64,000 nt of DNA from a virus (IMGVR_UViG_3300042556_001053:50444-114443), one strand, 5' to 3'; positions 6,260 through 39,982 are shown, counted from the stretch's first letter. Numbers and translations are program-made. Notes: generated by a model from the sequence alone, not told the origin.

Positions 6260-6832
6260 ATGAGAAGAGATAAAAAGATTTGGATTGGAATCCTTGCTGC
6301 ACTTGGGCTTATTGCACCACTAAGTAATGCAGCTAATGCTTTAAGTACTGAAAATAACTTGAGTAAACCAGCCATTGCTGAACCTTCAACCGCCAAGGCG
6401 GTTTTTTTGGTTTCTAAGCCTAAAAGTCTGGTAGCAGTAAAAAAGAACCTAAATGTTCTACATAAGTATCAGGATGCTGTTAGTCTTACAGACCGTCAGT
6501 TAAAGGAGCTTTTGCATGCCGTTGGTTTTCGTGGCCAAGGCCTAGTAAAGGCTTGGGCGGTAGCTAAGAAAGAGTCTAATGGCCGTCCACTAGCTTTTAA
6601 TGGCAATGTTAAGACTGGTGACAACTCTTACGGTATATTTCAAATCAATATGCTTGGAATGCTAAAAGAAGGTCGTCAAGATAAGTTTGGCCTAAACTTT
6701 AATAGTGAGCTCTTAAACCCTGTTATCAATGCACAGGTTGCATATCACATGAGTAATGGTGGAAAGAACTGGTCTGCTTGGAAAGGCATGACTCCAAGAA
6801 CCAAGTCCTGGATGGCTAAGTTCCCTTACTAA
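6260..6832 (+). CDS. Secreted lytic transglycosylase (SLT/lysozyme-like)
   Basis: Signal peptide; AVAKKESNG (catalytic Glu) and SYGIFQIN motifs; AGGAGG RBS; TTGCCT...TGTTATACT promoter. Confidence 0.8.
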   Translation: MRRDKKIWIGILAALGLIAPLSNAANALSTENNLSKPAIAEPSTAKAVFLVSKPKSLVAVKKNLNVLHKYQDAVSLTDRQLKELLHAVGFRGQGLVKAWAVAKKESNGRPLAFNGNVKTGDNSYGIFQINMLGMLKEGRQDKFGLNFNSELLNPVINAQVAYHMSNGGKNWSAWKGMTPRTKSWMAKFPY

Positions 6833-7407
6833 AAAGGCAAATTTTTATTAAGAACTGTTGGGTGCTCATCATTACCTCTCATAAATATTGTTGAGAAGTA
6901 TCTAGGCGAATCATCTAAAACTGGAAGAGATCCATGCATAACTTCTCCTCCATGAAGTAGGGCTGAGCCAGCTTTTGGTTTAATAGTTATTCCTAATTCT
7001 GGGTAGTCAAGCTCTCCACCAAGATAGTTATCATTATAATATATTACAAGGCCATAGCCTAAATAATATCCTTCAGGGGTTGTATCATTATCACGATGTT
7101 GCTTTATTTGATCGCCTTTTTTAAACCTAGAAATCTTTAATTCTTGTTCACAAAAAAAATATGATGGGAATATGTAGTCAACCTTATCAAAAACCAAGCT
7201 TCTACACAAATCTTTATGATCATAAAGGAACAAACTTTTATCGTGCCATAAACTATATTCATCTGAAATTTCATTAAGATCAGTCCAGCCATCTTGTTTT
7301 TTATCAGAAAGTATATTTAAAATTAAAGACAGTTCTTCTTGATTTAAAAAGTTTTCAATTTCATAAACATCCTCTGCAAGTTTGTTAATTTTAAAATTGT
7401 ATTTCAT
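6829..7407 (-). CDS. 2OG-Fe(II) oxygenase, prolyl 4-hydroxylase-like
   Basis: HRD...YYNDNYLGGEL...KPKAG...H...R motifs. Confidence 0.85.
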   Translation of the reverse strand: MKYNFKINKLAEDVYEIENFLNQEELSLILNILSDKKQDGWTDLNEISDEYSLWHDKSLFLYDHKDLCRSLVFDKVDYIFPSYFFCEQELKISRFKKGDQIKQHRDNDTTPEGYYLGYGLVIYYNDNYLGGELDYPELGITIKPKAGSALLHGGEVMHGSLPVLDDSPRYFSTIFMRGNDEHPTVLNKNLPF

Positions 7408-8076
7408 TTAACCAAACTTACTACTACCTATATGGTTCATTTCAATATGATTAATATTAAAATGACTTGGAAGATCTGATACCCACCTAATAGACTCTGC
7501 AAGATCTTCAGCAGTCAAGGCTATTTCACGTCTTTCTGTTTGTGTATCAATAGTTCCTGGGCATATTTCAGTAACCTTAATGCCGTAAGCAGGAAACTCT
7601 AAACGCATAGTATCAACTAGTGCCATCATTCCTCTTTTAGCGTTTATATAGTTACCACCACTACGGTATGGAACCTTTCCACCCAAGGAACTTATAAATA
7701 TAATAGTTGGAGACTTAGACCTTTGCATGCATGGAACAAAAAGCTGTGAAAGGTACATAGGTCCAGAGACATTTATTTCGTAGGCAATTCTAAAATTATC
7801 CATTGTTTCATTTATAAGCATTGTTGGACCTGATCCACCACCAGCATTATTAACTAGAAGGTCAAGTGTGATATCTTTGTATTTTTCAAAAAAAGACTTA
7901 ATCTCTTCAGGATTAGTTATGTCCATCTTGTATGTTTCAACATTGTCAGATACAAGCTCATTGACCTTAGAAAGGTTTCTAGAGACAGCTATAACCTTGT
8001 AGCCACTCTCAGACAGAAGTTTTACTGTAGCATAGCCAACGCCCTTGCTAGCCCCTGTAACTATGGCTGTTTTCAT
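7408..8076 (-). CDS. Short-chain dehydrogenase/reductase
   Basis: TGASKGVG, NNAG, YINAK (YxxxK), CPG motifs. Confidence 0.9.
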   Translation of the reverse strand: MKTAIVTGASKGVGYATVKLLSESGYKVIAVSRNLSKVNELVSDNVETYKMDITNPEEIKSFFEKYKDITLDLLVNNAGGGSGPTMLINETMDNFRIAYEINVSGPMYLSQLFVPCMQRSKSPTIIFISSLGGKVPYRSGGNYINAKRGMMALVDTMRLEFPAYGIKVTEICPGTIDTQTERREIALTAEDLAESIRWVSDLPSHFNINHIEMNHIGSSKFG

Positions 8077-8777
8077 CTGTTGTCCGTAGGCTGTGTACCG
8101 CCAGATAAGTCGTTATACCAGTGCATAGGTATCATATATTTAAAACCACTTTTTACAAGGTGAGCTGTATGATGATAAGGAGGAGAAGATGGGAATATAA
8201 TTACGCTTCCAGCTTCTGGTTTAATTCCTATTGTTATTCTGTCAGAATCCTTGGACAAAGAGTAGTCTTCTGATGGCTTTCCATTAATAATAGGGGCATC
8301 TGGGGACTCTATGGTAAAAGATAATTCGCCACCTTCGTAGTCATCATTTAAATAAAACACTAAAGAGTATCTTAACCTAGTGTCCCCTTCTTGTTGATCA
8401 AAGTGTGCACCCATAAAGGTTCCAGCGCTATATTTTTTAATATCAAAGGCTGGTAGAATCATTGGCTCTTCCATGTCTCCTTTTGATACTGCATAGTCTT
8501 TGCAGACATTATAGAATAAATCAGTTATTGTGTTATATATGTAACTAACAGGGCTAGCATCTTTATCTGCTATTTTTTCAGAATCAGATGGCTGAACAGT
8601 TTTTTGAGATCCATACAAATACATCTCTCCACTGCAGGCTGTCCACTCATTCCATTTAGTCAAGGATGTGCCATAGTCTTTGCTCTCAGTGGCTTCAATC
8701 ATTTCTATAAACTTTTTTGGATCTGCTATTGCATTTTTATAGTAATATATGTTTTCTTCAAGTATTTCTCTTTGCAT
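8073..8777 (-). CDS. 2OG-Fe(II) oxygenase, P4H-like
   Basis: HFD...YLNDDYEGGEL...HHTAH. Confidence 0.85.
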   Translation of the reverse strand: MQREILEENIYYYKNAIADPKKFIEMIEATESKDYGTSLTKWNEWTACSGEMYLYGSQKTVQPSDSEKIADKDASPVSYIYNTITDLFYNVCKDYAVSKGDMEEPMILPAFDIKKYSAGTFMGAHFDQQEGDTRLRYSLVFYLNDDYEGGELSFTIESPDAPIINGKPSEDYSLSKDSDRITIGIKPEAGSVIIFPSSPPYHHTAHLVKSGFKYMIPMHWYNDLSGGTQPTDNR

Positions 8778-9520
8778 TACATTATCCCCTTATTTGATTG
8801 TTGAGGATACATGCTCATGTTGTTGTGTATCCAATGACCTGGAACCATATACTTAAATCCAGACTTTACTGTATGTGCTATATGAAAATATGGTGCTTTT
8901 GCAGGAAAAATTATTACGCTATTTGCTTTTGGCTTTATTCCAAAGTCTATTGATTTGCTTGCCTTGGCTATTTCATAATCTAGGTCTACACCTGGTGCTC
9001 CATGAACCCAGCCTTCGGAGCTATTCCATCCACCATCATAGTCTTTAAGCTGAAATGAAATTTCTCCGCCTTCACAGTCATCATTTAAATACATGACTAA
9101 AGAATATCTTAGTGTTTCATCTCCATCTAGTTGATCAAAGTGTGCTCCCATAGATCTTCCAGTATTATACTTTTTAATATTAAATGTTGGAAACAGATTT
9201 GGCTCATCGTAGTCTCCAAGAGATAAAGCATAATCTTTACATACATTATGAAACGTTTTCATAACAGCATCATAAATATACTTGGTTTTTTCTCCAACCT
9301 CGTCTTTTAATTTATTAATTGAATCTAAATTAAAGGTTTTGGTTTCACCATAGATAAAAGACTTATCGTTAGAAGATGTCCAAGGCTCCCAAACATTTAC
9401 GTTATGTTCACTTGATGCGTCCAATGCGTCCAGCTCTTTTAAAATTTTCTGAAAAGTATCAAAATTTTCTATTGCATCAGTATAATAATAAACCTTTGGA
9501 TCTAAAATTTCTTTATTCAT
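8777..9520 (-). CDS. 2OG-Fe(II) oxygenase, P4H-like (close paralog of 8073..8777)
   Basis: MGAHFDQ...LRYSLVMYLNDDCEGGEI...FHIAH. Confidence 0.85.
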   Translation of the reverse strand: MNKEILDPKVYYYTDAIENFDTFQKILKELDALDASSEHNVNVWEPWTSSNDKSFIYGETKTFNLDSINKLKDEVGEKTKYIYDAVMKTFHNVCKDYALSLGDYDEPNLFPTFNIKKYNTGRSMGAHFDQLDGDETLRYSLVMYLNDDCEGGEISFQLKDYDGGWNSSEGWVHGAPGVDLDYEIAKASKSIDFGIKPKANSVIIFPAKAPYFHIAHTVKSGFKYMVPGHWIHNNMSMYPQQSNKGIM

Positions 9521-9529
9521 TCTGTCTCC

Positions 9530-10189
9530 TTAATATTTATTATTTTCATAGAAGTTTTTTTCTTTTATAAAACCAACTAGAACATATCTAATTGGTCCCT
9601 CACCAACTGGAATTACTCCGTGATGAAAATCGCTAGTTCCTGGGAAAATAAGAAGTGATCCCTTTTTAGGTTTTATTTTTAAATCTAAGTTTTTAAAAAA
9701 CAATTCTCCATCAGCATACTCATCATTAAGATATAAAATGGTTGCATAACGAATTGAGGGATCTGTGTCTTGATCTGTATGAGCCTTTAGTTCAACTCCA
9801 GGCTGCATCCTTTGCAATGTAGCTAGTCCACTTAGCTCTAAATTACTTCCTTCATTAACTACGGCTTTATTTAGTCTTTGATATACAGTGTGATAGATTG
9901 GATATGCCCTTATTACCAGATTCTTGTCTTCCCAGTTTCTGGTGATCTCAAACTTTCCTTCAGCAACAAGATTGTCAACGTCATCTCTACCAAATTTTTC
10001 CATACAGAATCTTTTAAGGTTGGAAGTATATTCTATAAACCAATCCTCGTCTGGTGTATTGTTGATAATCTCTAAATAGTCGTCTATTTCTTCTTGAGAA
10101 ATAAAATCTTCTAATAAAAGTAGATCTTTTGATATTTCTTCAAATTTTATTCCTAGATCAGTTAGCTCTTTTGTAAGATATGCAGACAT
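9530..10189 (-). CDS. 2OG-Fe(II) oxygenase, P4H-like
   Basis: HTD...YLNDEYADGEL...HGV...R. Confidence 0.85.
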   Translation of the reverse strand: MSAYLTKELTDLGIKFEEISKDLLLLEDFISQEEIDDYLEIINNTPDEDWFIEYTSNLKRFCMEKFGRDDVDNLVAEGKFEITRNWEDKNLVIRAYPIYHTVYQRLNKAVVNEGSNLELSGLATLQRMQPGVELKAHTDQDTDPSIRYATILYLNDEYADGELFFKNLDLKIKPKKGSLLIFPGTSDFHHGVIPVGEGPIRYVLVGFIKEKNFYENNKY

Positions 10190-10190
10190 A

Positions 10191-10940
10191 CTAGATTACC
10201 TCCTCTGGCTTATATTTATTTCCATCTTTATCTAGCTTCCACCCTTGCTTAAGTAGCTCTTGCCACTCTGCTCTTTCAATCTCTTGCTTTGCTCTTGTTT
10301 CTTTCATTTCTTCGGCCCATGCATCTCTTACCTCTTGTGGGTAGGCATCTTCTTCACGGTCATCCCAGAAAGATCCTATGGTATATCTTACACCTTTAGT
10401 AATTAACGATACTTCGTGCATATTATTAAATCCACCGTCAAATACGGCAAGCATTCCAACCTTTGGCTGAATTTCTATGTTTTGATCTGGAAATCTTAAA
10501 AGACCACCTTCAAAATCATCGTTTAAGTACAGGAATCCTGCATATCTACTTCTTGTAAATGCTCCAGAATTGCCCTTCTCATCTGTATTATCAGAGTGTA
10601 CTCTTGCATAAGCACCTGGCTCCCACTTTTGAGTATGATATCCAATTTTAGAAATTATTTTTGGGTCTAAGTCATGTACTGATGCAATTGCTTCTGGCAT
10701 CTTACTTTCAATATCTGAAAAAATAGTTGGAGATAGCCCAGCGTCAATTACCTCTTGATCATTGTCTTGTGGTAGCACTGAAGAATATGACTCATAAAAT
10801 GATATAGGCATCCAAGTTAGTCCGCCGTTATTTGCTTGTGCATCAAGTGCATTAATCATCTTTTTGCACTCATCTTCACTAACAAAGTTTTCAAAAATAA
10901 CAATATCCTTTGTAAGTCTTATCTTATTGTTTAGGTTCAT
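10191..10940 (-). CDS. 2OG-Fe(II) oxygenase, P4H-like
   Basis: HSD...YLNDDFEGG...HEV...RY. Confidence 0.85.
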   Translation of the reverse strand: MNLNNKIRLTKDIVIFENFVSEDECKKMINALDAQANNGGLTWMPISFYESYSSVLPQDNDQEVIDAGLSPTIFSDIESKMPEAIASVHDLDPKIISKIGYHTQKWEPGAYARVHSDNTDEKGNSGAFTRSRYAGFLYLNDDFEGGLLRFPDQNIEIQPKVGMLAVFDGGFNNMHEVSLITKGVRYTIGSFWDDREEDAYPQEVRDAWAEEMKETRAKQEIERAEWQELLKQGWKLDKDGNKYKPEEVI

Positions 10941-11818
10941 TTTATTCTCACAGCTCCTTCTATTTCGTTTCTTTGTGGATGATCTTTTCTAAACTGTTCA
11001 TGTATTTCTGGTTGCATGCTTGCCCATACATGCTTACCAAACTCTTTTTCTTTTTCATACCATTCATCAGACCCTTTTTCATACTTTTGCCAATACATTC
11101 TTGACAAAAACTTATTTTTATTGTAAGAAGGCATTACTCCATGTAAGTATGGATCACCATTTTCTGTTAAATAATCGGGATGCCCTGATGGAAAAACAAG
11201 TAGGTCTCCTGCTTGTGGCTTATATTTAACAAGCTTATCTCCCATTGCAAAGTCAACCTCTCCGCCTTCATAGTCGTCATTAAAATAAATAGTGCATGTT
11301 ATTACAAACTTGTATCCTGGAGCATCTGCCATCTCTCTCTGATAGTCTGAATGATATCTCATCCCTACCTTTTCTTCATCAGTGCTTACATGATACTTTC
11401 CAACTGTTCCACCAGCCCACTTCCAGGTTGGAACAGTCTGACCACTTTCATCTACAGACAAGTCATCTAAATCTACTTCTACCCCATACTTTTTAATATA
11501 GTGCTCTGTAGCCAAATAAAAGTTTTCCAACATCTCTATTGCAAAGAGTCGCTGGTCTTCCTGAGACTGTGTTGTTGTTTTGATATCTTTTAAACCGCCG
11601 TACTTATCGTACATAATCAGATTAGGTATTATTGGGCTTAAGTATTCTCCAAAAATAGACCATTGTGTCCAAGGGCTAAAAAGTCTATCTTCTGAGTTAT
11701 CCAAAGAATCATTTAAAACTTTGTAAGATTTTGAAATATCTTTAAACATATTTTTATAAACTACAATATTTGGGTATATTTCTTCAAACACAATACCATT
11801 TTCTTGGGTGTTGTTCAT
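10937..11818 (-). CDS. 2OG-Fe(II) oxygenase, P4H-like
   Basis: HSD...YFNDDYEGGEV...YLHGV. Confidence 0.85.
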   Translation of the reverse strand: MNNTQENGIVFEEIYPNIVVYKNMFKDISKSYKVLNDSLDNSEDRLFSPWTQWSIFGEYLSPIIPNLIMYDKYGGLKDIKTTTQSQEDQRLFAIEMLENFYLATEHYIKKYGVEVDLDDLSVDESGQTVPTWKWAGGTVGKYHVSTDEEKVGMRYHSDYQREMADAPGYKFVITCTIYFNDDYEGGEVDFAMGDKLVKYKPQAGDLLVFPSGHPDYLTENGDPYLHGVMPSYNKNKFLSRMYWQKYEKGSDEWYEKEKEFGKHVWASMQPEIHEQFRKDHPQRNEIEGAVRIK

Positions 11819-12702
11819 CTTAATCTAACCCCATTATCTATTGTAATTCTTTGTAGGTTTTCTTTTTCATATTGACCCTGAATCTTATTCATCTCTGACT
11901 GCCAAGAGTCACCAAAAATTAGACTTTTTTCTTTCCACTCATCAGATGAGTCTTCATATACTGTCCAAAACATCCTTATAAAATATTTTTCATTTTCTTT
12001 ACAAATTTCTGCAGCATGTAGATATACCTCACCATCTTCTGTGGAATATTCTGGATGTCCTGAAGGAAAAACAACAAAATCTCCAGCTTTTGGTTTATAG
12101 TTTATTAGCTTATTGCCAACTGCAAAGTCAATTCCGCCTCCTGAATAATTATCATTTAGGTATATGGTTGTAGTCAAAACAAACTTATATCCTGGGCCCT
12201 TTATAGCTTCTCTAACATAGTCGCTGTGATATCTCATTGCTAATCTTTCAGAGTCTGGCCCAGCAGCGGTAGAACCAACATAATATTTACACAAAGATGG
12301 TCCAGTCCAGTTCCACTTTTGATATTTTTTTCCATCTGATTGAACAGTATCTTTTTCTTCTTTGTGTATTGGGAAGTTGTGTTTTTCAATATAGTGGTTA
12401 TTAGCCAAATGAAATGCTTTAATTAATTCAATCATAAAATATCTTTGATCTTCTTGAACCTTGCTAGTAGGTTCTATGTCAAAGTTAATTTTAAGATCTG
12501 AGACATTTTTATCAAAAGATATTCCAAAGTTTTCTATTTTTTCACCTATAGAGTACCAGTCATTCCACTTGTCCCATATAGCATCTTCATAATTATTTAT
12601 TGAATCTTTTGCAATCTGATACATTCTTTCTGGGTCTTCAAATATGTTATTGTAAACAACAATATTTGGATAAATTTCTTCAAATGTAAGTTCTGTAGTC
12701 AT
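11815..12702 (-). CDS. 2OG-Fe(II) oxygenase, P4H-like (paralog of 10937..11818)
   Basis: Start reassigned to MTTELTFEEIYPN; HSD...YLNDNYSGGG...YLHAA. Confidence 0.85.
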   Translation of the reverse strand: MTTELTFEEIYPNIVVYNNIFEDPERMYQIAKDSINNYEDAIWDKWNDWYSIGEKIENFGISFDKNVSDLKINFDIEPTSKVQEDQRYFMIELIKAFHLANNHYIEKHNFPIHKEEKDTVQSDGKKYQKWNWTGPSLCKYYVGSTAAGPDSERLAMRYHSDYVREAIKGPGYKFVLTTTIYLNDNYSGGGIDFAVGNKLINYKPKAGDFVVFPSGHPEYSTEDGEVYLHAAEICKENEKYFIRMFWTVYEDSSDEWKEKSLIFGDSWQSEMNKIQGQYEKENLQRITIDNGVRLR

Positions 12703-12703
12703 A

Positions 12704-13378
12704 TTACGGCTTTCTGTCTCCAGTATGTTCCGTAATTTCCCAAAAAAATGGACATGTAAATCTAAGCCCACTTTTTATTTCTGTGACCCCATGTATATAG
12801 TTCATATCTCCAGGGAAAAAATATGCTGCTCCTTTTTTAGGTTTAAATTGAACTCCTTGATTTGGAAAGTATAGCTCTCCGCCTTCGTAGTCTTCATTTA
12901 AATAAAACAAACTGGAAAGATCATAGTTTGGAAAATCATTTGGCAGTCCTGCGTCTGGCCCGTCGTGCAGTTCTTTATCAGCGTGTGGTTTTTGGAATTG
13001 TCCTGGAAGCCACTTGACAATTGTTGTTCCTGTAGGAATTACTTTTACTTTATAAAATTCTTCTACTATTGGTTGCAATCTTTGAAATAGGCCAGCAATG
13101 ACTGGAGATATCTTTGGATCGTTTTTGTCTAAACTTGGCTGTGTTGCAACTCTATCTTTCCAATAATCTGAATCGTATACTACTGTACCGTTTTCATTTA
13201 CATGGCTTTCTGTTACATCCCAAATTGTTAAAGATTTTGCAGCCTTTTCTAAAAACTCTATTTCTTCTTGTGTCATAAAGTTTTCTAGCTCAACAATCAT
13301 TTCTTTGCCACTACCAAACCAGCCAGAAGGTGTTATTGATGGCTTTCTAACCACAACAGAAGCTTTTATATTATCCAT
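12704..13378 (-). CDS. 2OG-Fe(II) oxygenase, P4H-like
   Basis: HAD...YLNEDYEGGELYF...HGV...R. Confidence 0.85.
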   Translation of the reverse strand: MDNIKASVVVRKPSITPSGWFGSGKEMIVELENFMTQEEIEFLEKAAKSLTIWDVTESHVNENGTVVYDSDYWKDRVATQPSLDKNDPKISPVIAGLFQRLQPIVEEFYKVKVIPTGTTIVKWLPGQFQKPHADKELHDGPDAGLPNDFPNYDLSSLFYLNEDYEGGELYFPNQGVQFKPKKGAAYFFPGDMNYIHGVTEIKSGLRFTCPFFWEITEHTGDRKP

Positions 13379-13380
13379 AA

Positions 13381-14109
13381 TTAGATTATACCATTTCCTT
13401 TGCTTGCTGTATTGTCCGTAACAGAAAGACGGATAACCTTTGTTTCGTGAGAGCCTTTACTTTCACCCTTTTCATTAATTGCATCTCTATACCAATCGGT
13501 CCATTCACCAGATTGATTAATTTTTTGTGCAGCTTCTCCATATGACTGATGAGCTTTTTCTCTACTACGATCTGGATCTGAATAATCAAATATTTGAATT
13601 GATGTATTGTCCATTGCTGTCAAAGAGATTGGTACTATAGTTGCAAGAGGTGTACCTGCTTTTATAGTAATTTCTTTATTCGCAGATCTTGCTTTAATTG
13701 CTAATGGGAAACCAGTATCTAGCCAAGATGTACTGATTAAAGAAGACATGGTTTCAAAGTCTTCACTAAAATAGTTTACTGGGTTAATAGTGAACATGCT
13801 TACGTTTTGTTCAGATCTAAAGGTGAGCCCTGTATGTATACTTACTGTAGATTGTCCCCTGCCAGTATAAGTAAACCCTTCTCCCTCTATAACTTTAACA
13901 TTTTCTGAACTTGTATCGTTTATTCCATTCCATATAAACTTGATATCCTCTTTAGCTGAAAGATTCCACCCAACCATGTTTGCTTGGGTTACTGGAAAAC
14001 ATCTGTATGCATGCTTTTCTGGAGTAAGATCCATCCAGTCTCTTTTTATTGACATTGGAGAAATTATAATTTTTGAATCTGGAAATCTTTCAACAGAGAT
14101 ATTTAACAT
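13381..14109 (-). CDS. DUF6065-like protein
   Basis: RDWMD...HAYRCFPVTQANMVGW and GTPLATIVP motifs. Confidence 0.65.
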   Translation of the reverse strand: MLNISVERFPDSKIIISPMSIKRDWMDLTPEKHAYRCFPVTQANMVGWNLSAKEDIKFIWNGINDTSSENVKVIEGEGFTYTGRGQSTVSIHTGLTFRSEQNVSMFTINPVNYFSEDFETMSSLISTSWLDTGFPLAIKARSANKEITIKAGTPLATIVPISLTAMDNTSIQIFDYSDPDRSREKAHQSYGEAAQKINQSGEWTDWYRDAINEKGESKGSHETKVIRLSVTDNTASKGNGII

Positions 14110-14786
14110 TACATTTTATCCTGAGTAAACATATCTGGAGTATGGAACTTTTTGTTATAATCCAACATAGTAACAATAGAGTATTTTGTTCCAGATTCTA
14201 CTGGCATAGCTTGATGAGGATACATGTAGTTTGATGGGAAGATATACAGATCTCCAGCCTTTGGCTTAATCTTTAAATCTTGCAATCTAAAGTACAACTC
14301 GCCACCTTCATAGTCATCATTGATGTATGCAACAAGAGAGACTGTACAATTATAAGAATACCCATGGTCATGGTGCTCCATAAAGTGTTGTCCTGGACCA
14401 TACTTTATAAAGTTAAAGGCTTCCCAATATTTAAGATCCATAATGTTGTAATCTTTTCTGTAATCTTCAACTGCCTGGAACTGAGCATCATATACATCTT
14501 GCCAAAGAGATTGTAGCTTTAAAGATGTTTCGCTTTTATCTAGCTCTATATCTGTTTTCTTAAACTTAAAATCAACACAGTCTCTGTAGTCTGGAATAAG
14601 TTGCTGGTACCCAACGTATGCTGGCATCCAGTGGTATCTGTTACCTTCTGGAGATAATTCTCCGTATCCAGCTACTGACCCTAAATTTTCTTCAAGTCTT
14701 TCTATTACATTGAAGTCTTTTTTTATTACATCTCTGTAACATACAATTCCATTACCAAGATTTATTTTTTCTGTCCATGTTTGCAT
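14109..14786 (-). CDS. 2OG-Fe(II) oxygenase, P4H-like
   Basis: HHD...YINDDYEGGELYF...FPSNYMYPH...GTKYS. Confidence 0.85.
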   Translation of the reverse strand: MQTWTEKINLGNGIVCYRDVIKKDFNVIERLEENLGSVAGYGELSPEGNRYHWMPAYVGYQQLIPDYRDCVDFKFKKTDIELDKSETSLKLQSLWQDVYDAQFQAVEDYRKDYNIMDLKYWEAFNFIKYGPGQHFMEHHDHGYSYNCTVSLVAYINDDYEGGELYFRLQDLKIKPKAGDLYIFPSNYMYPHQAMPVESGTKYSIVTMLDYNKKFHTPDMFTQDKM

Positions 14787-14795
14787 AGTTTCCCC

Positions 14796-15572
14796 CTATT
14801 TATATTCTCTTCTTGTCCAAACCTTATTTTTATAAACGCCACCATCTGGTTGTCTATAAAAATTTGCATTACTCATCATTTTAGCATAAATTTCTGTTGA
14901 GCCTATAAAGTTTATTTCATGACTCCAGTCTTCTCTTTTAAAAGGCAGTATCTGTACATATGGTGTTCCTGCTGGAAGCGTTCCTTCCCAACCTTCTGTA
15001 ATAAAAAATGGAAAAGTACCTAGAAGATGAACACTATCATTGTCAACAACTCCAGTGGTATTTATAAATGGCAAATCAAAACGATTCATTGGGGTCATGA
15101 ATAATGCACTGTATCCTTCTGGCAATTCTAGGCCCCAGTCTGGGTACCAGGCAAAATGCTCTCTATAATATCCTTTTGGTTGCTCAAATTGTGGCATTGC
15201 CATTCTTTTGCTGCAAAAATCTTGATGTCGTGTATCTTCTATTTTTACATCTATAGAACCGCTTGCTGTTTTAAAAAAAGTAATATCACAAGGAGTTTTT
15301 AATACATATCCTGTTGTAAATGCATCCATGATTGCTGGACATGCTTTCCATGTAGGAATCTTTCCATAGTCATCTTTTGTTCCTTCTTTAGGAAATGGAC
15401 AAATCTGCGGTGTGGCTTTGTAGTATTCACCAATAGGATCTTTGGCAAACCTATCTGCATCTTTGTACCATTGTGGAATTACTGCTTGTGTTGGTGATGG
15501 AACAGAGGGACTATCCTTTGTAACCCATGGCCTATAAGCTGTAAACTTTGCAATATTTTCTTTTAATGTCAT
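14796..15572 (-). CDS. DUF6065-related protein (possible dUTPase-like beta fold)
   Basis: IPQWYK, KACPAIMD, PEGYS, GVVDND and GTPYVQILPFKRE motifs. Confidence 0.55.
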   Translation of the reverse strand: MTLKENIAKFTAYRPWVTKDSPSVPSPTQAVIPQWYKDADRFAKDPIGEYYKATPQICPFPKEGTKDDYGKIPTWKACPAIMDAFTTGYVLKTPCDITFFKTASGSIDVKIEDTRHQDFCSKRMAMPQFEQPKGYYREHFAWYPDWGLELPEGYSALFMTPMNRFDLPFINTTGVVDNDSVHLLGTFPFFITEGWEGTLPAGTPYVQILPFKREDWSHEINFIGSTEIYAKMMSNANFYRQPDGGVYKNKVWTRREYK

Positions 15573-16285
15573 TACTTATGACCTAGCTCATTTATATCTG
15601 TCATGACTACGACACAATACTTTGTACCGCTCTTCATTGGCAGAGATGCATGCTCATATATGTAGTTTGATGGAAACACTGCAATGTCTCCTACCTTTGG
15701 AGTAAGAGTGTAGCCATCTAATCTTGGAAATTGAATCTCTCCGCCTTCATAATCATCGTTAATATAGATAACTGCAGATACTGTAGCATTATATGCTGGT
15801 CCGTGATCAGCATGAATATTAAAGTGTTTTCCTTCGCCTTCATATTTGACAAAGTTGAATGCTTCATAATAAACAACATTAATTCCCCAGTATCTTGCAT
15901 AATCATCTATACAAAGCTTTAGCTTTTCGTATATCTCCTGATGTAAATCAATGAGCTCACTATTGAAAGGATCTCTTGGTCCCAAATTTTCCTGCTTGTA
16001 TTTAAAGTCAACGCAATCTCTTGCTCGTTTAATTGGTGTAGCAGAGTTTGTAACTGTTGCTTCAGACCATCTAAACTTTTTTGTTCCGTCTAAGTTAGAT
16101 TCAAGTGTGTTTATATATCTTTTTGAATCTTCTAAAGAAAACACATTTCTATATATGTTCAAACCAAGACCTGGGTTCTCTATTACAATATTGTGCTCAG
16201 GTATAGCCCTATCAACCTTGTTTGTTATTGTCTCTGATCTGTCCTTGGTAAACCATGGGTTTTCATTTTCATCATAAATTTCCAT
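15572..16285 (-). CDS. 2OG-Fe(II) oxygenase, P4H-like (paralog of 14109..14786)
   Basis: HAD...YINDDYEGGEI...FPSNYIYEH...GTKY. Confidence 0.85.
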   Translation of the reverse strand: MEIYDENENPWFTKDRSETITNKVDRAIPEHNIVIENPGLGLNIYRNVFSLEDSKRYINTLESNLDGTKKFRWSEATVTNSATPIKRARDCVDFKYKQENLGPRDPFNSELIDLHQEIYEKLKLCIDDYARYWGINVVYYEAFNFVKYEGEGKHFNIHADHGPAYNATVSAVIYINDDYEGGEIQFPRLDGYTLTPKVGDIAVFPSNYIYEHASLPMKSGTKYCVVVMTDINELGHK

Positions 16286-16440
16286 ATATATCCCCTTTTT
16301 ATTTTATTATACACTATCTTTATTTTTTTGTAAAACAATTTAAATATTATTGCAAACCTTTTGCAACATATAAGATCTAGCACTCATAAAAACACAAAAG
16401 GCCAAACAATGTTGGCCAATTGTATTACTGCTTTTTTATT

Positions 16441-17517
16441 TTATACTACACCTGGTAGTGTGAAGTATGGGAAGAACGGTCCAACTCCAAACCCTGGGAA
16501 GAACGGTGGGAAGAATGGGAAGAACGGGAAGAATGGGAAGAACGGTGGGAAGAACGGGAAGAATGGGAAGAACGGGAAGAACGGTGGGAAGAATGGGAAG
16601 AACGGGAAGAATGGGAAGAACGGTGGGAAGAATGGGAAGAACGGGAAGAATGGGAAGAACGGTGGGAAGAACGGGAAGAATGGGAAGAACGGGAAGAAAG
16701 GTGGGAAGAATGGAGGGAAGAATGGGAAGAAAGGAGGGAAGAATGGAGGGAAGAACGGTGGGAAGAATGGGAAGAACGGTGGGAAAAATGGCGGGAAGAA
16801 TGGAGGAAAGAATGGGAAGAACGGAGGAAAGAACGGTGGGAAAAATGGAGGGAAGAAAGGAAAGAATGGAAAGAATGGTGGAAAGAATGGTCCTAATGTA
16901 ACAACAACAGAGTTAGAGTTTGAAGATACTGGAGATGATCCATTTGCATTTGTTGCAATAACTGTATATGTATATGTTCCTGCTGTTGTTTCTGTAATAG
17001 TAAGTGGGGTTCCTGTGCCAGTTGCTGTTTTTCCAGAAGTAGAAGTGACTGTATAGTTTGGAGTAGTTAAAGCTGAGTTTCCAATTTGTGCAGATGTAAG
17101 GTTTGTAAAAGGAATAGTTACAATTCCAGTTGTTCCATTAACTGATGCTGTTCCAATTGTTACCTGAGCTGGCTTAGATGTTGGGACTACAGCATTACTT
17201 GCTGAAGAAGCTGCAGAAACTCCGATTGCATTTGTTGCGGTAACGGTAAAAGTATAATTTGCTGGAGTTCCACTTGTTGACAAACCTGTTATAACTATTG
17301 GAGAAGATGATCCAGTTCCTGTATGTCCACCAGATGAGGTTACTGTATATCCTGTAATAGGCATCTTGCCATTATAAGAAGGGGCTGAAAAAGATACAGA
17401 AACCTGACCGCTATTAAATGTGCGTCCTGATCCTTGGTCTGTAGCTGTGCCAATTACTGGTGCGTTTGGAACTGACTTCTTTGATGAATCTGTTGTACCA
17501 GTATTTTTTGGGCTCAT
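16441..17517 (-). CDS. Protein with two FN3-like domains and a Pro/Phe-only C-terminal repeat tail
   Basis: PNAP...VSFSAPSYNG..ITGYTVT...YTFTVTATNAIG.S.AS FN3 signature twice, then PFF/PPFF repeats; leaderless after TGGTACAAT. Confidence 0.85.
   Translation of the reverse strand: MSPKNTGTTDSSKKSVPNAPVIGTATDQGSGRTFNSGQVSVSFSAPSYNGKMPITGYTVTSSGGHTGTGSSSPIVITGLSTSGTPANYTFTVTATNAIGVSAASSASNAVVPTSKPAQVTIGTASVNGTTGIVTIPFTNLTSAQIGNSALTTPNYTVTSTSGKTATGTGTPLTITETTAGTYTYTVIATNANGSSPVSSNSNSVVVTLGPFFPPFFPFFPFFPPFFPPFFPPFFPFFPPFFPPFFPPFFPFFPPFFPPFFPPFFPFFPPFFPPFFPFFPFFPFFPPFFPFFPFFPFFPPFFPFFPFFPFFPPFFPFFPFFPFFPPFFPFFPFFPFFPPFFPGFGVGPFFPYFTLPGVV
16495..16890 (-). repeat. Coding tandem repeat of 9-nt (PFF) and 12-nt (PPFF) units
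   Basis: 396 nt encoding 56 Pro and 76 Phe and nothing else. Confidence 0.95.
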
Positions 17518-17557
17518 AGCAGTAATTGTACCATAAGATTATACAGTTTTTGATATT

Positions 17558-18277
17558 TTATCTAACAGATATATAAATAGATTTAGCAACCATTGAGGCA
17601 TCATTATCTGTCAATATTTGTGGTAGTCCGCCATAGTTTCTAACCATGTCATTTTCTATAAAAAAGGTGTGCTCTAATGACATGTCATATGAAAACTGAT
17701 ACTTTAGGTTTGCAGCAAAGGTAGTAGGCCAAAAGTCAGACTCTGGTATGTAAGTTCTAAACCAAACTTCAGTGTTGTTGGTAAGGGTAGTCAAAATAAT
17801 ATCATAACGGACTGTTACAATTGAGCCAACCTTTAGTGCTTTAAGGTTTATTTTTTGTGATTGTGAGTTATATAATGAAACGTTATTTTCTGGTAAATAA
17901 AGCTCGTTATTTTTACCCCTACAGTCAAAGCTAAAGCTAACCCAGCCGTCATTTCCTTTTGTAGCACCAAGAGTAATATTTTTTTGATCTTTGTTTGTAT
18001 AAAGAGCCCAACCAGTTCTTTGACCTGATGGAGACAAACTGCTTTCTCCTGCTATTCCATCCCTACCGTTTTTTCCATCTTTACCAGGTTTTCCAGGTTC
18101 TCCCTGTGGTCCTTGTTTGCCTTCTGGTCCAGAATCGCCTTTATCACCCTTTGGGCCCTGTTCTCCTTGTGGTCCAGGAACAGCTATGAAAGAAACTGAT
18201 TGCTCAAGTTGATAAGAGTTGTTTACATTGTCTGAATATTTTTTAGACTTCCCTGGAAAATCCATGCTAGTTGACAT
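17558..18277 (-). CDS. Collagen-like (Gly-X-Y) protein with C-terminal globular domain
   Basis: GPQGEQGPKGDKGDSGPEGKQGPQGEPGKPGKDGKNGRDGIAGES. Confidence 0.85.
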   Translation of the reverse strand: MSTSMDFPGKSKKYSDNVNNSYQLEQSVSFIAVPGPQGEQGPKGDKGDSGPEGKQGPQGEPGKPGKDGKNGRDGIAGESSLSPSGQRTGWALYTNKDQKNITLGATKGNDGWVSFSFDCRGKNNELYLPENNVSLYNSQSQKINLKALKVGSIVTVRYDIILTTLTNNTEVWFRTYIPESDFWPTTFAANLKYQFSYDMSLEHTFFIENDMVRNYGGLPQILTDNDASMVAKSIYISVR

Positions 18278-18286
18278 GAATTGAAT

Positions 18287-18373
18287 CTATTTCTTTACCT
18301 TAAAAACCTTTTTTCCAATTTTAATAACTGGTGGAAGGTTTACTTGAGATACCTCAACTTTAATTACAGGCAT
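18287..18373 (-). CDS. 28-aa basic small protein (not in ORF track)
   Basis: MPVIKVEVSQVNLPPVIKIGKKVFKVKK, TAATG-coupled; mirrors the small gene that follows paralog 5704..6117. Confidence 0.5.
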   Translation of the reverse strand: MPVIKVEVSQVNLPPVIKIGKKVFKVKK

Positions 18374-18774
18374 TATAAACCTCCAGGAGTTATGTCACCT
18401 AGAACACAAATTGTTCCAAGTACTGGAGTCCAAACAGTTGGCTCTATATCATCTTCTCCAGCAGGTATTGTTGCCTGTAGGTCAAATGGAAGTTCAGAAA
18501 CTATTGATGTATATTTTGTTCCCCAGTTTTTTGTTAAATCTGCTGATGCAAAAATTGTTGCTGTATGACCAGAAACTGTAACTGTTAACTCATCAAGAAA
18601 ATCACCAGACACGTCATAGGCCGTTGCTGCAAAGTCCCAATCCTCTATATCCCAGCCAGTGGCTTCATCATCTTCAAGAAATTGAACTGCTAGGCTTGAC
18701 GAATCTCCACGAACAACGGTCCACTGGATGTGAGCTGGAGTTGCTCCTAATTTTTCTATTGCTGGGGTACACAT
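18373..18774 (-). CDS. Baseplate/tail beta-sandwich-type protein, paralog of 5704..6117
   Basis: QWTVVRGD...FDLQ...VWT...GxIxVLxDIT pattern. Confidence 0.55.
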   Translation of the reverse strand: MCTPAIEKLGATPAHIQWTVVRGDSSSLAVQFLEDDEATGWDIEDWDFAATAYDVSGDFLDELTVTVSGHTATIFASADLTKNWGTKYTSIVSELPFDLQATIPAGEDDIEPTVWTPVLGTICVLGDITPGGL

Positions 18775-18792
18775 GTAACTGATTATACCATT

Positions 18793-18849
18793 AAATAAAG
18801 CTAGTACTCAGACGCAGTGGGGTGGGTTAGAATCTGAGTACTAGCAGGC
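18793..18849 (-). ncRNA. Candidate small hairpin RNA with C-rich loop
   Basis: 13-bp perfect IR GCTAGTACTCAGA (18800-18812/18833-18845), upstream TGTTATACT, downstream U-rich tract. Confidence 0.4.
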
Positions 18850-19094
18850 TTAAAGTATAACATTATTTATTTAAGTATATACAATTTGGACATTTCAGAC
18901 ATAAAAATTTTATAAAGCCAGGGTATTTGGAATTGTTACCAAAAAGTTATAATTACTAATATACCAAATGTCCGAATTATGCCTATTCAATAAATTAATT
19001 ATGGTGTATACTTAAAATATATAAAGAAAAGAACTATATCTAAACAAGGTTTTTAAAAGATATATTTTATATAAAGGAAAATAGGAAAATTAGG

Positions 19095-19361
19095 TTAGTT
19101 GTCAGTCTTAGCGATATGCTTAATTAATATTCTGTACATCTCATCAAGCTTTGACTCTTGACGATTTCTAGATTCAATAGAATCCATTCTTTGCTCGTCT
19201 AAAGCAGCCTCTAGTCTATTAACCTGGTCTCTTAAGCTTGATCCAGAATTCGGCTTAAGCTCGCTTAGGTAATGTTTTACAAGCCATCTTACAGCTAAAC
19301 CAAATGATGAGACAATTGTAAGAATTGCTACAATCAACGAAGCCCAATCTTGAATTGTCAT
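19095..19361 (-). CDS. Membrane protein (holin-like, TM plus coiled coil)
   Basis: N-terminal TM helix then ELKPNSGSSLRDQVNRLE, a motif common in actinophage lysis-region genes. Confidence 0.6.
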   Translation of the reverse strand: MTIQDWASLIVAILTIVSSFGLAVRWLVKHYLSELKPNSGSSLRDQVNRLEAALDEQRMDSIESRNRQESKLDEMYRILIKHIAKTDN

Positions 19362-19548
19362 AATAAGATAATTATATCATTATTTAAAATTAAGTTCGGC
19401 GGGTGGATATAAAAAATCAAAGTGCTGCCTTTAAGTTTCGCCAGTAAATGAATTGCATTAAAGTCGTCGCCGAAATAGAGATATCAAACCATCACACAGA
19501 CAACATAGGATTGACACAATCCAAGCATGTCTGATACAATGGAATTCT

Positions 19549-20154
19549 ATGCATGATGAATTAAAAAATACTTTAATAGGTGGTTTGCTAGGAAAGCTGG
19601 CAATCCATCATTCGGTATATCGTTTACCGTGTACAAGTGAATATCTAGAAGAACTTGTATCTGATGTGCTAAACGAAAACGGTATGCCAAATGACTGGAA
19701 GCCTGATAGAAGCCATAGCGTCAGCATAGACATGACATTAGAGTCAGGTGAGAGTATTAGTGTCAAGTCAGGAAGATATGACCCAGAGAAGGCTACATTG
19801 GTTATATCTGGGTCTAGGCTGGGCAAACACGAGACATTAGAGAAGATGGTAGAGTCTGTTGCTTCTACACATGCTGATTACTATGTGTGTTTAGCCAAAG
19901 CAGACCAGGATTGGTCTCATATCCCGTCAAAAAATGAGATCAAGACATATCATTTATTTGTCTTTGAAGCATCAAAATTAGATTATGGTTTTGAGCATTG
20001 GTCAAGAAAAGAATCTAAGCATGGCAAAGGTTATAAGTACGTAATGGATATACCAGGTATGTCAGCTACTATACGTCCTACTATGTCTCATCAGTTGTGG
20101 ACTACGGTATCTTGTGATATCATTGGTATACCAACAAAATTGGAGATACTGTGA
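19549..20154 (+). CDS. Putative PD-(D/E)xK restriction-like endonuclease
   Basis: LEELV...SIDMT...ISVKSG catalytic-like spacing; sigma-A promoter TTGACA-17-TACAAT, leaderless. Confidence 0.45.
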   Translation: MHDELKNTLIGGLLGKLAIHHSVYRLPCTSEYLEELVSDVLNENGMPNDWKPDRSHSVSIDMTLESGESISVKSGRYDPEKATLVISGSRLGKHETLEKMVESVASTHADYYVCLAKADQDWSHIPSKNEIKTYHLFVFEASKLDYGFEHWSRKESKHGKGYKYVMDIPGMSATIRPTMSHQLWTTVSCDIIGIPTKLEIL

Positions 20155-20348
20155 GCGACGATGTTCGTCCTTGGGATCTGTTTAACGGATCTCCTAGGAG
20201 CCCAGAAGAGCTTGCAGCATACCGTCTACAAATTTGTACTGGATGTGAATTCTTTCGTAAAAGAACACAGACATGCAGAAAGTGTGGATGTTTTATGAAA
20301 CTTAAGACGACACTGGAACACGCCAAGTGTCCTATACAGAAATGGTGA
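20151..20348 (+). CDS. Cys-rich zinc-binding small protein (DUF6171-like)
   Basis: RLQICTGC...CRKCGCFMKLK...CPIQKW. Confidence 0.65.
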   Translation: MSDDVRPWDLFNGSPRSPEELAAYRLQICTGCEFFRKRTQTCRKCGCFMKLKTTLEHAKCPIQKW

Positions 20349-20354
20349 TACAAT

Positions 20355-20540
20355 ATGAATGATCAAGAAATAGTTGCGTTTATGGTTGATAGTCTCAATG
20401 CAGACAATCGTGCTATATGTCAAAACAATGGAATGGATCCAGCAGAGATTGAGAAATCAATTGAGCAAAGCCAACAGTCACTCGTCTTCATGATGGGTAA
20501 CTTATACGTCAAGATGAAGGAGAAAAACCTAATTGCTTAA
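20355..20540 (+). CDS. Hypothetical protein
   Basis: ORF preceded by TGATACAAT. Confidence 0.55.
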   Translation: MNDQEIVAFMVDSLNADNRAICQNNGMDPAEIEKSIEQSQQSLVFMMGNLYVKMKEKNLIA

Positions 20541-20869
20541 ATATTATTTTACTCCAACTGCAGAAGCAATTGCTGAAACTAAGCTAGATATTTCTGGCAA
20601 TGAGGATACAATTTATTTTGTTGTTCGTGCAGAATCAAGAGAAGAAGCTCAAGAGTTTGCAATATCTATAATTAATATGAACAACTGGGAGCTAAGTCAC
20701 TCAGAAGAGTAATCTTCCCAAAACTTGTCTCTGCCCATATTGTCTCTATTAGGCATATGGGTAGATTCTTTTTCGGAGCAATTTATGCATACCGTTTCTG
20801 AAAAAATTTTTGTTTGCAAGTTGTCATCTTCAAAATTAATAGATGCTTCAAGATTATCTAGTATACCCA

Positions 20870-21475
20870 TTATTTCACCTTTTCATAGTAGCGCTCATAT
20901 AGCTTGTCTATATTTGCTTGAATAGCGTCAATGTCTTCTTTATAGTTATTTAAAAACATTTGTTCTACTTCTTCTTTTTCTTTTGCACTTTCTCTTGGAA
21001 AATTGCTTAAATAGGGATTTGCCAACTCTGGCTTTTCACCAATCTTTTCTATAATTTGTTCAGCAGTTAATATTTGGTTTACGCTGTATTTGTATGTTCT
21101 GCCAATAACCTTTATCACTGCATTATGGTCTTTAGTAAACTCATGAAATGGTGCTATGAATAGATCTTCGTTATCTAGTAGATATTGTGTATAATCTTTA
21201 TACCTCTGCAACACAACTTCTGTATCAGCATATAGTCCAGTGTTATGTTTATTCAAACCATTTGCAATTGCATAATCCTTATATATTTTTCCAGATACTA
21301 GTGATGGCAGAGCATCTCTTAGTGGCACTACAAATGGATAATCTAAGTTTCTGTTTTCTAGTGCTTCTATTTTATGTGACCATAAAGGTACAGCTTGAAT
21401 ACATAGTGTGTAACCTATTGCCCCAGCTAGAAATGTATTTCCTGATCTCTCTAGTCCGTCTATGTAGATTTTCAT
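20870..21475 (-). CDS. Sulfotransferase-like P-loop protein
   Basis: Start MKIYIDGLERSGNTF resembles the 5'-PSB loop; PLRD...SLVS resembles the 3'-PB motif. Confidence 0.55.
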   Translation of the reverse strand: MKIYIDGLERSGNTFLAGAIGYTLCIQAVPLWSHKIEALENRNLDYPFVVPLRDALPSLVSGKIYKDYAIANGLNKHNTGLYADTEVVLQRYKDYTQYLLDNEDLFIAPFHEFTKDHNAVIKVIGRTYKYSVNQILTAEQIIEKIGEKPELANPYLSNFPRESAKEKEEVEQMFLNNYKEDIDAIQANIDKLYERYYEKVK

Positions 21476-21900
21476 ATTATTAGTATACCGCAAAATCTGA
21501 AAAAGTTTTTGTTTTCTGATAGGCAAAAAGAATCTTGCGCTTTGCAGATACAGTATATTTAGATCAGTATTAGTCTTGAGGCTTAGAGCTGTGTGGCTCA
21601 GTGCATGTGCACCCAGCGCAGCAGAATCGGTCTCTTGGCATGACTACGGTTGTTTCTTCCATGGATTTATTATAGCACAGAATATCGTAAATTCACTTTG
21701 CCAAAAATCTGAATATTTTGTAGCTTTGTATGATACACGTATACAGGAAAAAAATACAAAAAAAATAGTGAGCACACTGTTGTATGCCCACCATCTTAAT
21801 TATTTACACTTACAGGGGTCTATGCGTGTTGTGTTGCCATCAAATAGAATGATGCCTGTGTCTCCACATGTCTCGCATGTGTGTGCGTAGAGTGCTGATG

Positions 21901-22490
21901 TCATTTAGTAGCCTTTCGTACTGTATAGAATTTATACCCTGCAATAATAACTGCGCTAGTCAATAGCATTGCCCATGATAGGGATAGATAGATGAAGTCA
22001 CCTGCATCAAGCATGAAGCCATAGTCATTGAGTTCAATAGTCATTGCTTACTTACCTGCCTCAATCTTTTGAATGTTAGCGGTGAACTTCTTGACCTTGC
22101 CTAGGTCGCTATCGTTTAGTGATGCGATGAGGTGGTCAATAGCCTTGACCTCATGTGCGATGTTGTCAATGCTTAGTAGTTTAGAGCCCTGCCAAATTGA
22201 GTAAGTGATTGTCATTGTCATTGTCTGTTCTTCTTTCTTTAGTTAGTTTGTTATAGTGATAATACTAGTAGGGATAGGGGTAAAAGTCAAGCCTTTAGCG
22301 TGTGGTGTTGGTCACACTACCAGCCAAGCACACGCTTGCGGTAGGCTTCTACCTCAGCAATCTGCTCTGGTGTAGCGTTGCGGTATGCCTGAACGCTCTC
22401 TCTAATCCAAGGGGACTTAGCCATAGCCGCCTCATGCTGTACCGCATAGCGTGCTTGCTGTTCTGCTCTTACTCTGTTTAGTGTATCCAT
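21901..22490 (-). CDS. Three small leftward early-type genes (21901-22044, 22048-22221, 22317-22490)
   Basis: Short ORFs with RBS behind minus-strand promoters; the MDTLNR gene resembles the MDTYNR gene at 22974..23120. Confidence 0.55.
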
Positions 22491-22743
22491 TTGATGAACA
22501 CCTTTCTTTAGTTTGTTATAGTAGAATACTATCACACTACCCTGACAAATGCAAGTCCAAACACGGCGTGTCGCATGTGATGTGTACCACATCGCCTCGG
22601 GCCCCCTGTGGTGTAGGTCACATGTGTTCTACGTCACAATGTCCTAAATGTCCGTTTTGTACCCCCCAATTTGTCAGACCCCCCTGTTATACTTACTAGT
22701 ATAAAGAAAGTTAAAAAGGTTTTAACTAAGAAAGGAAAACAAA

Positions 22744-39900: not shown

Positions 39901-39949
39901 AATAATAGTATATAGTAAATAAACTATATTATGGCAAATAATAGGCTCA

Positions 39950-39982
39950 TTTAACCAAGTGTTCACCTGATGTTCTACTTGA
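39950..39982. promoter_or_regulatory. PHO-box-like 11-nt direct repeats upstream of pstS
   Basis: TTTAACCAAGT GTTCACCTGAT GTTCTACTTGA, resembling the actinobacterial PhoP GTTCACC-N4 unit. Confidence 0.55.

Follow-up and report, generated by a model that had tools for sequence, protein, structure and literature searches.

The window analysed here is a 64,000-nucleotide stretch of viral DNA, spanning positions 50444-114443 of an IMG/VR virus record of 114,443 bp, rated complete by CheckV. It codes for an FN3 protein carrying a long tract made only of proline and phenylalanine (the FN3-PF protein, whose tract we call the PF tract or tail), and directly behind this gene there is an array of ten 2-oxoglutarate (2OG)-Fe(II) oxygenases. 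We compared it with around 200 related viral contigs (IMG/VR loci) and found that the tail and the array go together: the Pro/Phe-tail and oxygenase cassette is conserved in a large clade of freshwater phages of about 110 kb that encode WhiB. A previous reading of the window made from the sequence alone (the sequence-only reading) had presented the arrangement as a candidate new system; it is no lone system, however, but one conserved in a big freshwater actinophage clade. As for its meaning, sequence comparison leaves the chances evenly balanced that the array oxygenases hydroxylate prolines in the aromatic/Pro tracts of the phage's own fibre proteins.

Regarding the tail, the tract comprises residues 210-341, all of them either Phe (76) or Pro (56), in 21 PFF and 17 PPFF units. 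It had been described as the end of an FN3-FN3 protein. The composition of the 132 residues was right; however, 17 ordinary residues follow, so the tract is not strictly C-terminal, and the Pfam fn3 profile (PF00041) gave a single match in the window protein, of 22.0 bits, which is below the cut-off of 25. Homologues at 45-67% identity pass this cut-off, with up to two stretches each.

A tract of this kind could also be no translated functional element at all, but a slippage-prone DNA repeat or a (GKN)n collagen-like open reading frame (ORF) on the other strand. In fact, all six frames are open over the repeat and a + strand ORF of 231 aa exists; furthermore, the tracts vary from 40 to 188 aa in near relatives and the codon use is atypical, since TTC accounts for 91% of the Phe codons in the tract versus 21% in the rest of the genome. 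Nevertheless, we consider this explanation extremely improbable. Hundreds of homologues have the tract in the same frame as FN3 domains, and its unit lengths are always multiples of three. Only the PF frame makes every nucleotide difference synonymous (CCA/CCG/CCT, TTC/TTT), whereas the antisense (GKN)n frame picks up N/K changes. The neighbouring genes are all on the minus strand, and quite different DNA in the relatives codes for analogous aromatic repeats. The TTC preference fits a recent expansion of a founder unit. Neither is the tract an assembly artefact, because an independent contig (L001) carries the same tract at 96% identity and the relatives carry tracts too.

Downstream of the tail gene there are 13 packed minus-strand genes, which are ten PF13640 oxygenases (Ox1 to Ox10), one short-chain dehydrogenase/reductase (SDR), one DUF6065 protein (DUFa) and one phrog_7084 protein (DUFb). 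The ten oxygenases score 29.5-57.7 bits, the PF13640 cut-off being 27 bits, and three further PF13640 genes elsewhere in the genome bring the number to 13. In the alignment, HxD...H is kept in all 13 genomic copies together with a Lys/Arg about 10 residues past the distal His, which from its position would contact the C5 carboxylate of 2OG. Pfam matches and alignment therefore agree with the gene content and the intact iron triads given by the sequence-only reading. Its paralog pairs also hold, as there are three of them, Ox1/Ox2 with 43% identity and Ox4/Ox5 and Ox8/Ox9 with 46% each, the other pairs being around 20% identical. The SDR was found in 15 related arrays.

The fold comparison within the array covers Ox3 alone among the ten oxygenases. 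Against solved structures, the Ox3 profile matched P3H1 (1e-6), the prolyl 4-hydroxylase (P4H) of B. anthracis (2.5e-5), PiuC and vCPH of PBCV-1. The AlphaFold2 (AF2) model of Ox3 has a pLDDT of 92, and Foldseek ordered its matches as vCPH (E 6e-11), an uncharacterised PKHD-type oxygenase (3dkq), CrP4H, P3H1, BaP4H, PHD2 and human C-P4H-II, with no nucleic-acid oxygenase near the top. Because of these profile and model matches, the enzymes are predicted to work like protein prolyl hydroxylases, and it is supported that the array oxygenases belong to the peptidyl-prolyl-hydroxylase branch, the family in which they had been placed from the start. We also predicted the complex of Ox3 with tail residues 203-250; its score was 0.01, which counts neither for nor against binding.

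The co-occurrence and synteny of tail and array hold from three kinds of seeds. When Ox3 was the seed, all of the 39 loci had a PF tract (40-188 aa) at most 6.5 kb upstream. In the FN3-seeded loci the array came after the FN3-repeat gene in nearly all the Pro-rich cases. Finally, 26 of the 28 loci seeded solely on the DNA coding PFFPPFFPPFFPFF had at least six oxygenases downstream, and the two exceptions, from the same kind of genome, were the ortholog of the large fibre and an FN3-PF copy, the first one, that is not adjacent to the array. Most relatives have, in this order, a tail-fibre block, the FN3-repeat gene, Ox1, DUFb, Ox2, DUFa, Ox3, (Ox5), Ox6, Ox7, Ox9 and SDR, and then ribonucleotide reductase (RNR) and portal. 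The window clade differs: its collagen-like gene, FN3-PF gene and array lie beyond the SLT gene and the fibre block, on their other side. This array is thus displaced from RNR, yet it is still directly behind the FN3-repeat gene, as happens in both layouts. Extra oxygenase clusters occur in a related complete genome, G004 (the record of L049), at about 14991-19268 and at 99110-100314, each of them near a DUF6065-like gene and far from the FN3-repeat gene.

The tail protein belongs to a large family. A search with it against 5.8 billion proteins gave 887 matches, and most of the best 120 of them have two FN3 domains and then an aromatic low-complexity tract. Over the IMG/VR loci these tracts are of the kinds PFF/PPFF, PPYF/PPHF, PFFPNFC/PAFC, PPxFFA, TPFGF, FSFVPF, FGAFG, PYSFV and a proline-free YNY. 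The proline content of the tail is related to the number of oxygenases that follow. For 58 distinct FN3-repeat genes followed by 8 kb or more of sequence, the percentage of Pro in the tail and the downstream oxygenase count gave a Spearman rho of 0.81. Pro-rich tails had a median of 6 oxygenases (arrays of 5-11), the four low values being second copies, and Pro-poor tails (TPFGF, FSFVPF, FGAFG, YNY) had 0-2. Counting PF13640 genes over whole records, there were 13, 8, 10 and 12 in Pro-rich genomes versus 4 (TPFGF) and 2 (YNY) in Pro-poor ones. At the loci with proline-free Tyr/Asn/Phe tails (YNY/FYN, 63-75 aa; L066/L158:10001-10780, L164:7923-8729), the slot has neither oxygenases nor DUF6065 genes, and an extra fibre-like gene is there instead.

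There is a pattern with the kind of repeat unit as well. All 22 arrays behind a tail with aromatic-Pro-aromatic units had the Ox1 ortholog, and none of the 10 behind a tail with Pro-Pro units only did. It had been proposed that the paralogs divide the proline contexts between them, and this restriction of Ox1 to tails with single-Pro units is the one weak hint in favour of that.

Tail and array also appear to be inherited jointly. The PPxFFA tail type, a group that we defined only after the first tree had been seen, forms a single clade on the Ox3 tree (SH-aLRT 100). On the FN3-domain tree, it requires three changes, and a monophyly constraint was rejected (delta lnL 85, approximately unbiased test p 0.0005). 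Since the tail type follows the Ox3 tree and not the FN3-domain tree, the breakpoints lie inside the gene, upstream of the tail. These trees are supportive, not decisive, for a repeat tail that would travel with the array, the FN3 domains recombining on their own.

All this has to be weighed against the possibility that the oxygenases modify other proteins (EF-Tu, ribosomal proteins or other host factors, or else further proteins of the virion, for instance the collagen-like fibre), the slot being a recombination-prone accessory island whose link with the tail is only one of shared position and lineage. We regard it as unlikely, although there are several observations on its side. EF-Tu is modified by bacterial P4H-type enzymes, and PDB 5v7y is among the fold matches of Ox3; three PF13640 genes are elsewhere in the genome and two to four remain in the Pro-poor relatives; several such genes occur in cyanophages, where there is no PF tail; and the array has its own promoter, the independent contrasts being few. 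However, such an island leaves unexplained why array size and the presence of Ox1 track the proline content and motif of the tail, why the breakpoints repeatedly keep tail and array together and why the array stays behind the FN3-repeat gene after translocation. Furthermore, the collagen-like gene is missing from most of the array loci, and for this reason it was rejected as a conserved substrate of the array.

The two DUF6065-like genes need separate consideration. Both share phrog_7084; DUFb has no Pfam match, and the Atlas clusters of DUFa are mostly viral. The AF2 model of DUFb (pLDDT 91) has only dUTPases and dCTP deaminases as top matches, with Z of 9.1-8.1, unrelated folds being at 3.5 or below, and its superposition on dUTPase has a root-mean-square deviation of about 3 A over 108-129 residues. 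With a probability of 7.7%, hhalign places the invariant G-V-V-D-N-D and P-Y-V-Q-I-L of DUFb on dUTPase motifs III and IV. DUFb gave no Pfam PF00692 match and dUTPase motif V was not recognised in it. Judging from the fold model, the DUF6065/phrog_7084 proteins (a further one is at L234:5848-6738) may represent a family of dUTPases or dCTP deaminases that has diverged. Where relatives have tails of the FGAFG or PYSFV kind, DUFb and then RNR are all that the slot contains, without any oxygenase. The DUF6065-like genes are separable from the oxygenases because DUFb persists beside RNR where these are absent, and the modelled fold makes them probable nucleotide enzymes placed among the array genes. 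Thus, the view that they are tailoring enzymes is probably wrong. The literature that we searched gave no prior description of DUF6065, and its dUTPase-like fold assignment comes from this same analysis.

This leads to another explanation, in which the array is a nucleotide or small-molecule pathway: the DUF6065 proteins would bind a pyrimidine nucleotide, the oxygenases and the SDR would oxidise a base, a sugar or a metabolite together with RNR, and the fibre gene would be a mere neighbour. Besides the fold of DUFb (Z 8-9) and the low-probability alignment of motifs III and IV, it is favoured by the haloarchaeal tailed-virus homologues, which are beside thymidylate synthase and DNA polymerase, by the lack of a canonical dUTPase in the five related genomes inspected, by the position of RNR after the array in most relatives, and by weak Tet_JBP matches of Ox3 and Ox10. 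Nevertheless, the two sets of genes come apart where DUFb sits beside RNR without oxygenases, the window-clade array has moved off from RNR, and Ox3 finds its closest counterparts, in sequence as well as in fold, among protein prolyl hydroxylases and not in AlkB, TET or JBP. This pathway also does not predict that the number of oxygenases follows the tail proline content, and we hold it to be quite improbable.

Returning to hydroxylation of the phage's own fibre proteins, the ten array genes would code for active prolyl-hydroxylase-like enzymes, and the main candidate substrate would be the FN3-FN3-(PFF/PPFF)38 protein coded directly upstream of the array, and the (PPFF)n tract of a 1561-aa fibre-like protein of the same genome would probably be a target too. 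We infer the tail as the substrate, the chemistry and the virion location of the tail protein. The paralogs may split the proline contexts, Ox1 for example acting on the single-Pro units, and the SDR may oxidise or epimerise a hydroxyl further. Hydroxylation would make an extremely hydrophobic Pro/Phe polymer more soluble, stiffer (polyproline-II-like) or of tuned stickiness. Going a step further, and only tentatively, we picture a swappable cassette in which a two-letter aromatic/Pro polymer at the fibre end, 5-11 matched prolyl hydroxylases and the SDR would yield a heavily hydroxylated virion material, either adhesive or, as FG repeats are, cohesive.

There are several points that weigh against these proposals. 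All the relatives belong to one phage clade and the FN3 tree offers around three independent contrasts, which go in the same direction (sign test p 0.25); with only three independent pairs, the correlation with proline content cannot reach significance when phylogeny is allowed for. Tail and array are physically adjacent, so recombination would move both together even without a functional tie, and because adjacency alone favours co-transfer we take the joint inheritance as supportive rather than decisive. Some FN3-PF genes, namely second copies and the gene of the 1561-aa protein, are not beside an array. Among 50,697 phage records there was no FN3-aromatic-repeat homologue, although cyanomyoviruses carry several related oxygenases. 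The dUTPase-fold genes within the array and the RNR beside it hint at a nucleotide link. As to the chemistry, a proline between two bulky aromatics is not known as a P4H context. Finally, the hairpin near 16400 and the promoter near 16310 already pointed out in the sequence-only reading are both present, in the 155-nt gap between the tail gene and the array, and in the window clade they split one from the other. For this reason the word operon, used there for the arrangement, is too strong for this clade. In several relatives the first oxygenase follows the tail gene after only 2-22 nt, and these short gaps suggest co-transcription of tail gene and array in them.

Considering the source of the DNA, the record also codes for terminase, portal, protease, RNR and long tail-fibre proteins. 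Its DnaE-type polymerase is 55% identical to the counterparts of Streptomyces phages, and a WhiB-family gene (window 52628-52915, minus strand) is found here as well as in 4 related complete genomes. Because of WhiB, this polymerase and other genes of the record, an actinobacterial host is likely, and the sample identifiers together with a G+C content of around 36% suggest that it is a freshwater one.

The features of the region are collected in Table 1. The listed GTG start of Ox4, at 12771, makes this gene overlap Ox3 by 68 nt. The ATG at 12702 is one base past the stop of Ox3, and from it Ox4 would have 295 aa, matching its paralog Ox5 of 293 aa.

Table 1. Coordinates of the tail gene, the array genes and the elements around them in the window
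Feature	Position	Strand	Remarks
Collagen-like fibre-like protein, 15 Gly-X-Y triplets	17558..18277	-	PF01391 E 1.4e-8; tail-fibre PHROGs
FN3-FN3 protein with (PFF)21/(PPFF)17 tract, 358 aa, proposed substrate	16441..17517	-	Hundreds of homologues with aromatic repeat tails
DNA coding the 132-residue Pro/Phe tract (residues 210-341)	16495..16890	-	Tandem repeats, period 9/12/21/78
Intrinsic-terminator-like hairpin and T-run after the FN3-PF gene	16400..16417	-	Kept in relatives with differing stem sequences
Sigma-70-type promoter-like site before the array, TTTACA-N17-TATAAT	16306..16334	-	11/12 matches; conserved in L001, L002, L003, L005
Ox1, P4H-like 2OG-Fe(II) oxygenase, paralog of Ox2	15572..16285	-	PF13640 E 3.6e-11, triad intact
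DUFb, phrog_7084/DUF6065-like	14796..15572	-	phrog match; dUTPase-like fold model
Ox2, P4H-like, core of all Pro-rich-type arrays	14109..14786	-	PF13640 E 2.5e-15
DUFa, DUF6065 protein	13381..14109	-	PF19541 E 6.5e-30, 104.8 bits (cut-off 26.6)
Ox3, most conserved oxygenase of the array	12704..13378	-	PF13640; profile and fold matches
Ox4, paralog of Ox5	11815..12702	-	PF13640; start likely ATG 12702, not the listed GTG 12771
Ox5	10937..11818	-	PF13640 E 9e-9
Ox6, core member	10191..10940	-	PF13640 E 6.4e-9
Ox7	9530..10189	-	PF13640 E 9.4e-13
Ox8, paralog of Ox9	8777..9520	-	PF13640 E 5.5e-9
Ox9	8073..8777	-	PF13640 E 3.7e-11
SDR	7408..8076	-	PF00106 E 5.9e-41; TGxxxGxG and YxxxK readable in the translation
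Ox10, last array gene	6829..7407	-	PF13640 E 1.2e-6
Convergent SLT-type lysozyme gene bounding the array	6260..6832	+	PF18896 E 5.8e-17

The collagen-like gene is directly upstream of the tail gene, and it adjoins the FN3 gene in some of the relatives only. The second (PPFF)n tract of the genome, of about 80 aa in three blocks, is inside the 1561-aa fibre-like protein (gene at genome positions 18680-23365, outside the window; tract at L080:18947-19189) and is followed by an FN3-like end. An ortholog of this protein with a PF tract is found in contig L238, and the 1561-aa protein is not beside oxygenases.

Many members of the family carry a domain of around 160 aa after the repeat, with a Cys at its start and His-Asn at its end (for example L012:10001-11326, L028:4523-5827, P0018 and P0001). 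Its matches to the intein-splicing profile PF14890 are below threshold (E 2e-4 and 8e-4; 21 and 20 bits, with a cut-off of 35.8). The sequence of this Hint-like domain suggests an autoprocessing that would free the FN3-repeat part in these relatives; the window protein does not have it. Some other relatives terminate in a Cys-rich knot. Neither a megablast of the region nor a tblastn of the FN3-PF protein gave matches in the 50,697 phage records, and the literature searched has no account of this tail family or cassette, of phage Hint/FN3 fibres or of hydroxyproline in phage virions.

Other genes and signals of the phage are worth mentioning. The window contains genes for a GT60-like GlcNAc transferase (42198-43247; PF11397, E 1.3e-19), a GT25 glycosyltransferase (48125-49600) and a NodU/NolO-like carbamoyltransferase (44372-45796). 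As a conserved part of a Pro-Hyp-glycan pathway the GT60-like enzyme was rejected, being absent from 4 related complete genomes that have arrays and PF tails. An AhpC/TSA peroxiredoxin gene beside a CMD (AhpD-like) gene is located at 41077-42125 and a PstS-like phosphate-binding gene at 38776-39966; the peroxiredoxin pair might be related to oxidative side-reactions of many oxygenases. Extended -10 sites (TGnTAyAaT) are located 10-60 nt upstream of around 30 genes of all classes, often just past a hairpin (for example at window positions 17533, 18790, 2827 and 5471). The promoter type failed as a clue to timing, since these sites precede structural and non-structural genes alike.

The comparison has brought out a large family of FN3 proteins whose tails are aromatic and of low complexity (PFF, PPYF, PPxFFA, TPFGF, YNY), together with an enzyme-substrate hypothesis that is testable: it offers a 132-residue tract, ten candidate enzymes and, as natural controls, relatives lacking both the tail proline and the enzymes. 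If the swappable cassette pictured above is true, it would amount to a protein-tailoring system acting on a structural biopolymer, and it would give the abundant 'P4H' genes of aquatic phages their first natural substrate.

Among the known systems, the layout had been likened to that of clusters for ribosomally synthesised and post-translationally modified peptides (RiPPs). The likeness stands in that a candidate substrate gene adjoins its modifying enzymes and is inherited with them. However, here there is a 358-aa protein with folded domains and not a short leader-core precursor, the cluster has no leader, protease or exporter, and a terminator splits transcription in the window. Plant extensins and proline-rich proteins (PRPs), as well as mussel foot proteins, have Pro-rich repeats with Tyr or Phe, and their material properties depend on prolyl hydroxylation. 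The relatives with PPYF and PPHF units can be likened to them, although extensins and mussel proteins are products of the eukaryotic secretory pathway without sequence homology to these tails, for which hydroxylation is a proposal. Regarding the mode of inheritance, there are cassettes of a fibre tip and its chaperone in T4 (gp37/gp38), Mu (S/U) and lambda (stf/tfa). There, as here, the C-terminal part of the fibre and the downstream genes are swapped jointly while the N-terminal anchor part follows the phage lineage. Here, however, the downstream genes are oxygenases and not chaperones, and the swapped part is a low-complexity repeat and not a folded receptor-binding tip.

Enzymes of the same kind are widespread in viruses. 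Few 'auxiliary' genes of aquatic viromes are as abundant as those for P4H-type 2OG oxygenases, whose use by phages has been called cryptic (PMC9301287; cyanophage copies, PMC3037559); for multi-copy viral 2OG oxygenases and viral P4H the use is described as unknown (PMC3037559, PMC9301287, 10.1101/2025.08.05.668817). The P4HA 'AMG' (auxiliary metabolic gene) of T4-like cyanophages and other aquatic phages belongs to the same Pfam family and, as here, has several copies per genome. Nevertheless, the cyanophage copies are at most 33% identical and are dispersed or near UvsX, whereas the oxygenase genes described here lie side by side in one array, which is linked with a gene for a candidate substrate.

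A precedent is the Chlorella virus PBCV-1, whose P4H, according to Eriksson 1999 as cited in PMC9301287, hydroxylates viral Pro-rich repeat peptides in vitro. In both cases a P4H-type 2OG oxygenase is virus-coded in a genome with Pro-rich repeat proteins, and vCPH is the best fold match of Ox3. PBCV-1 is a eukaryotic virus with one enzyme as against 10-13 here, its repeats are (PAPK)n and not a two-letter Pro/Phe polymer, and no conserved gene cassette of enzyme and substrate is known for it.

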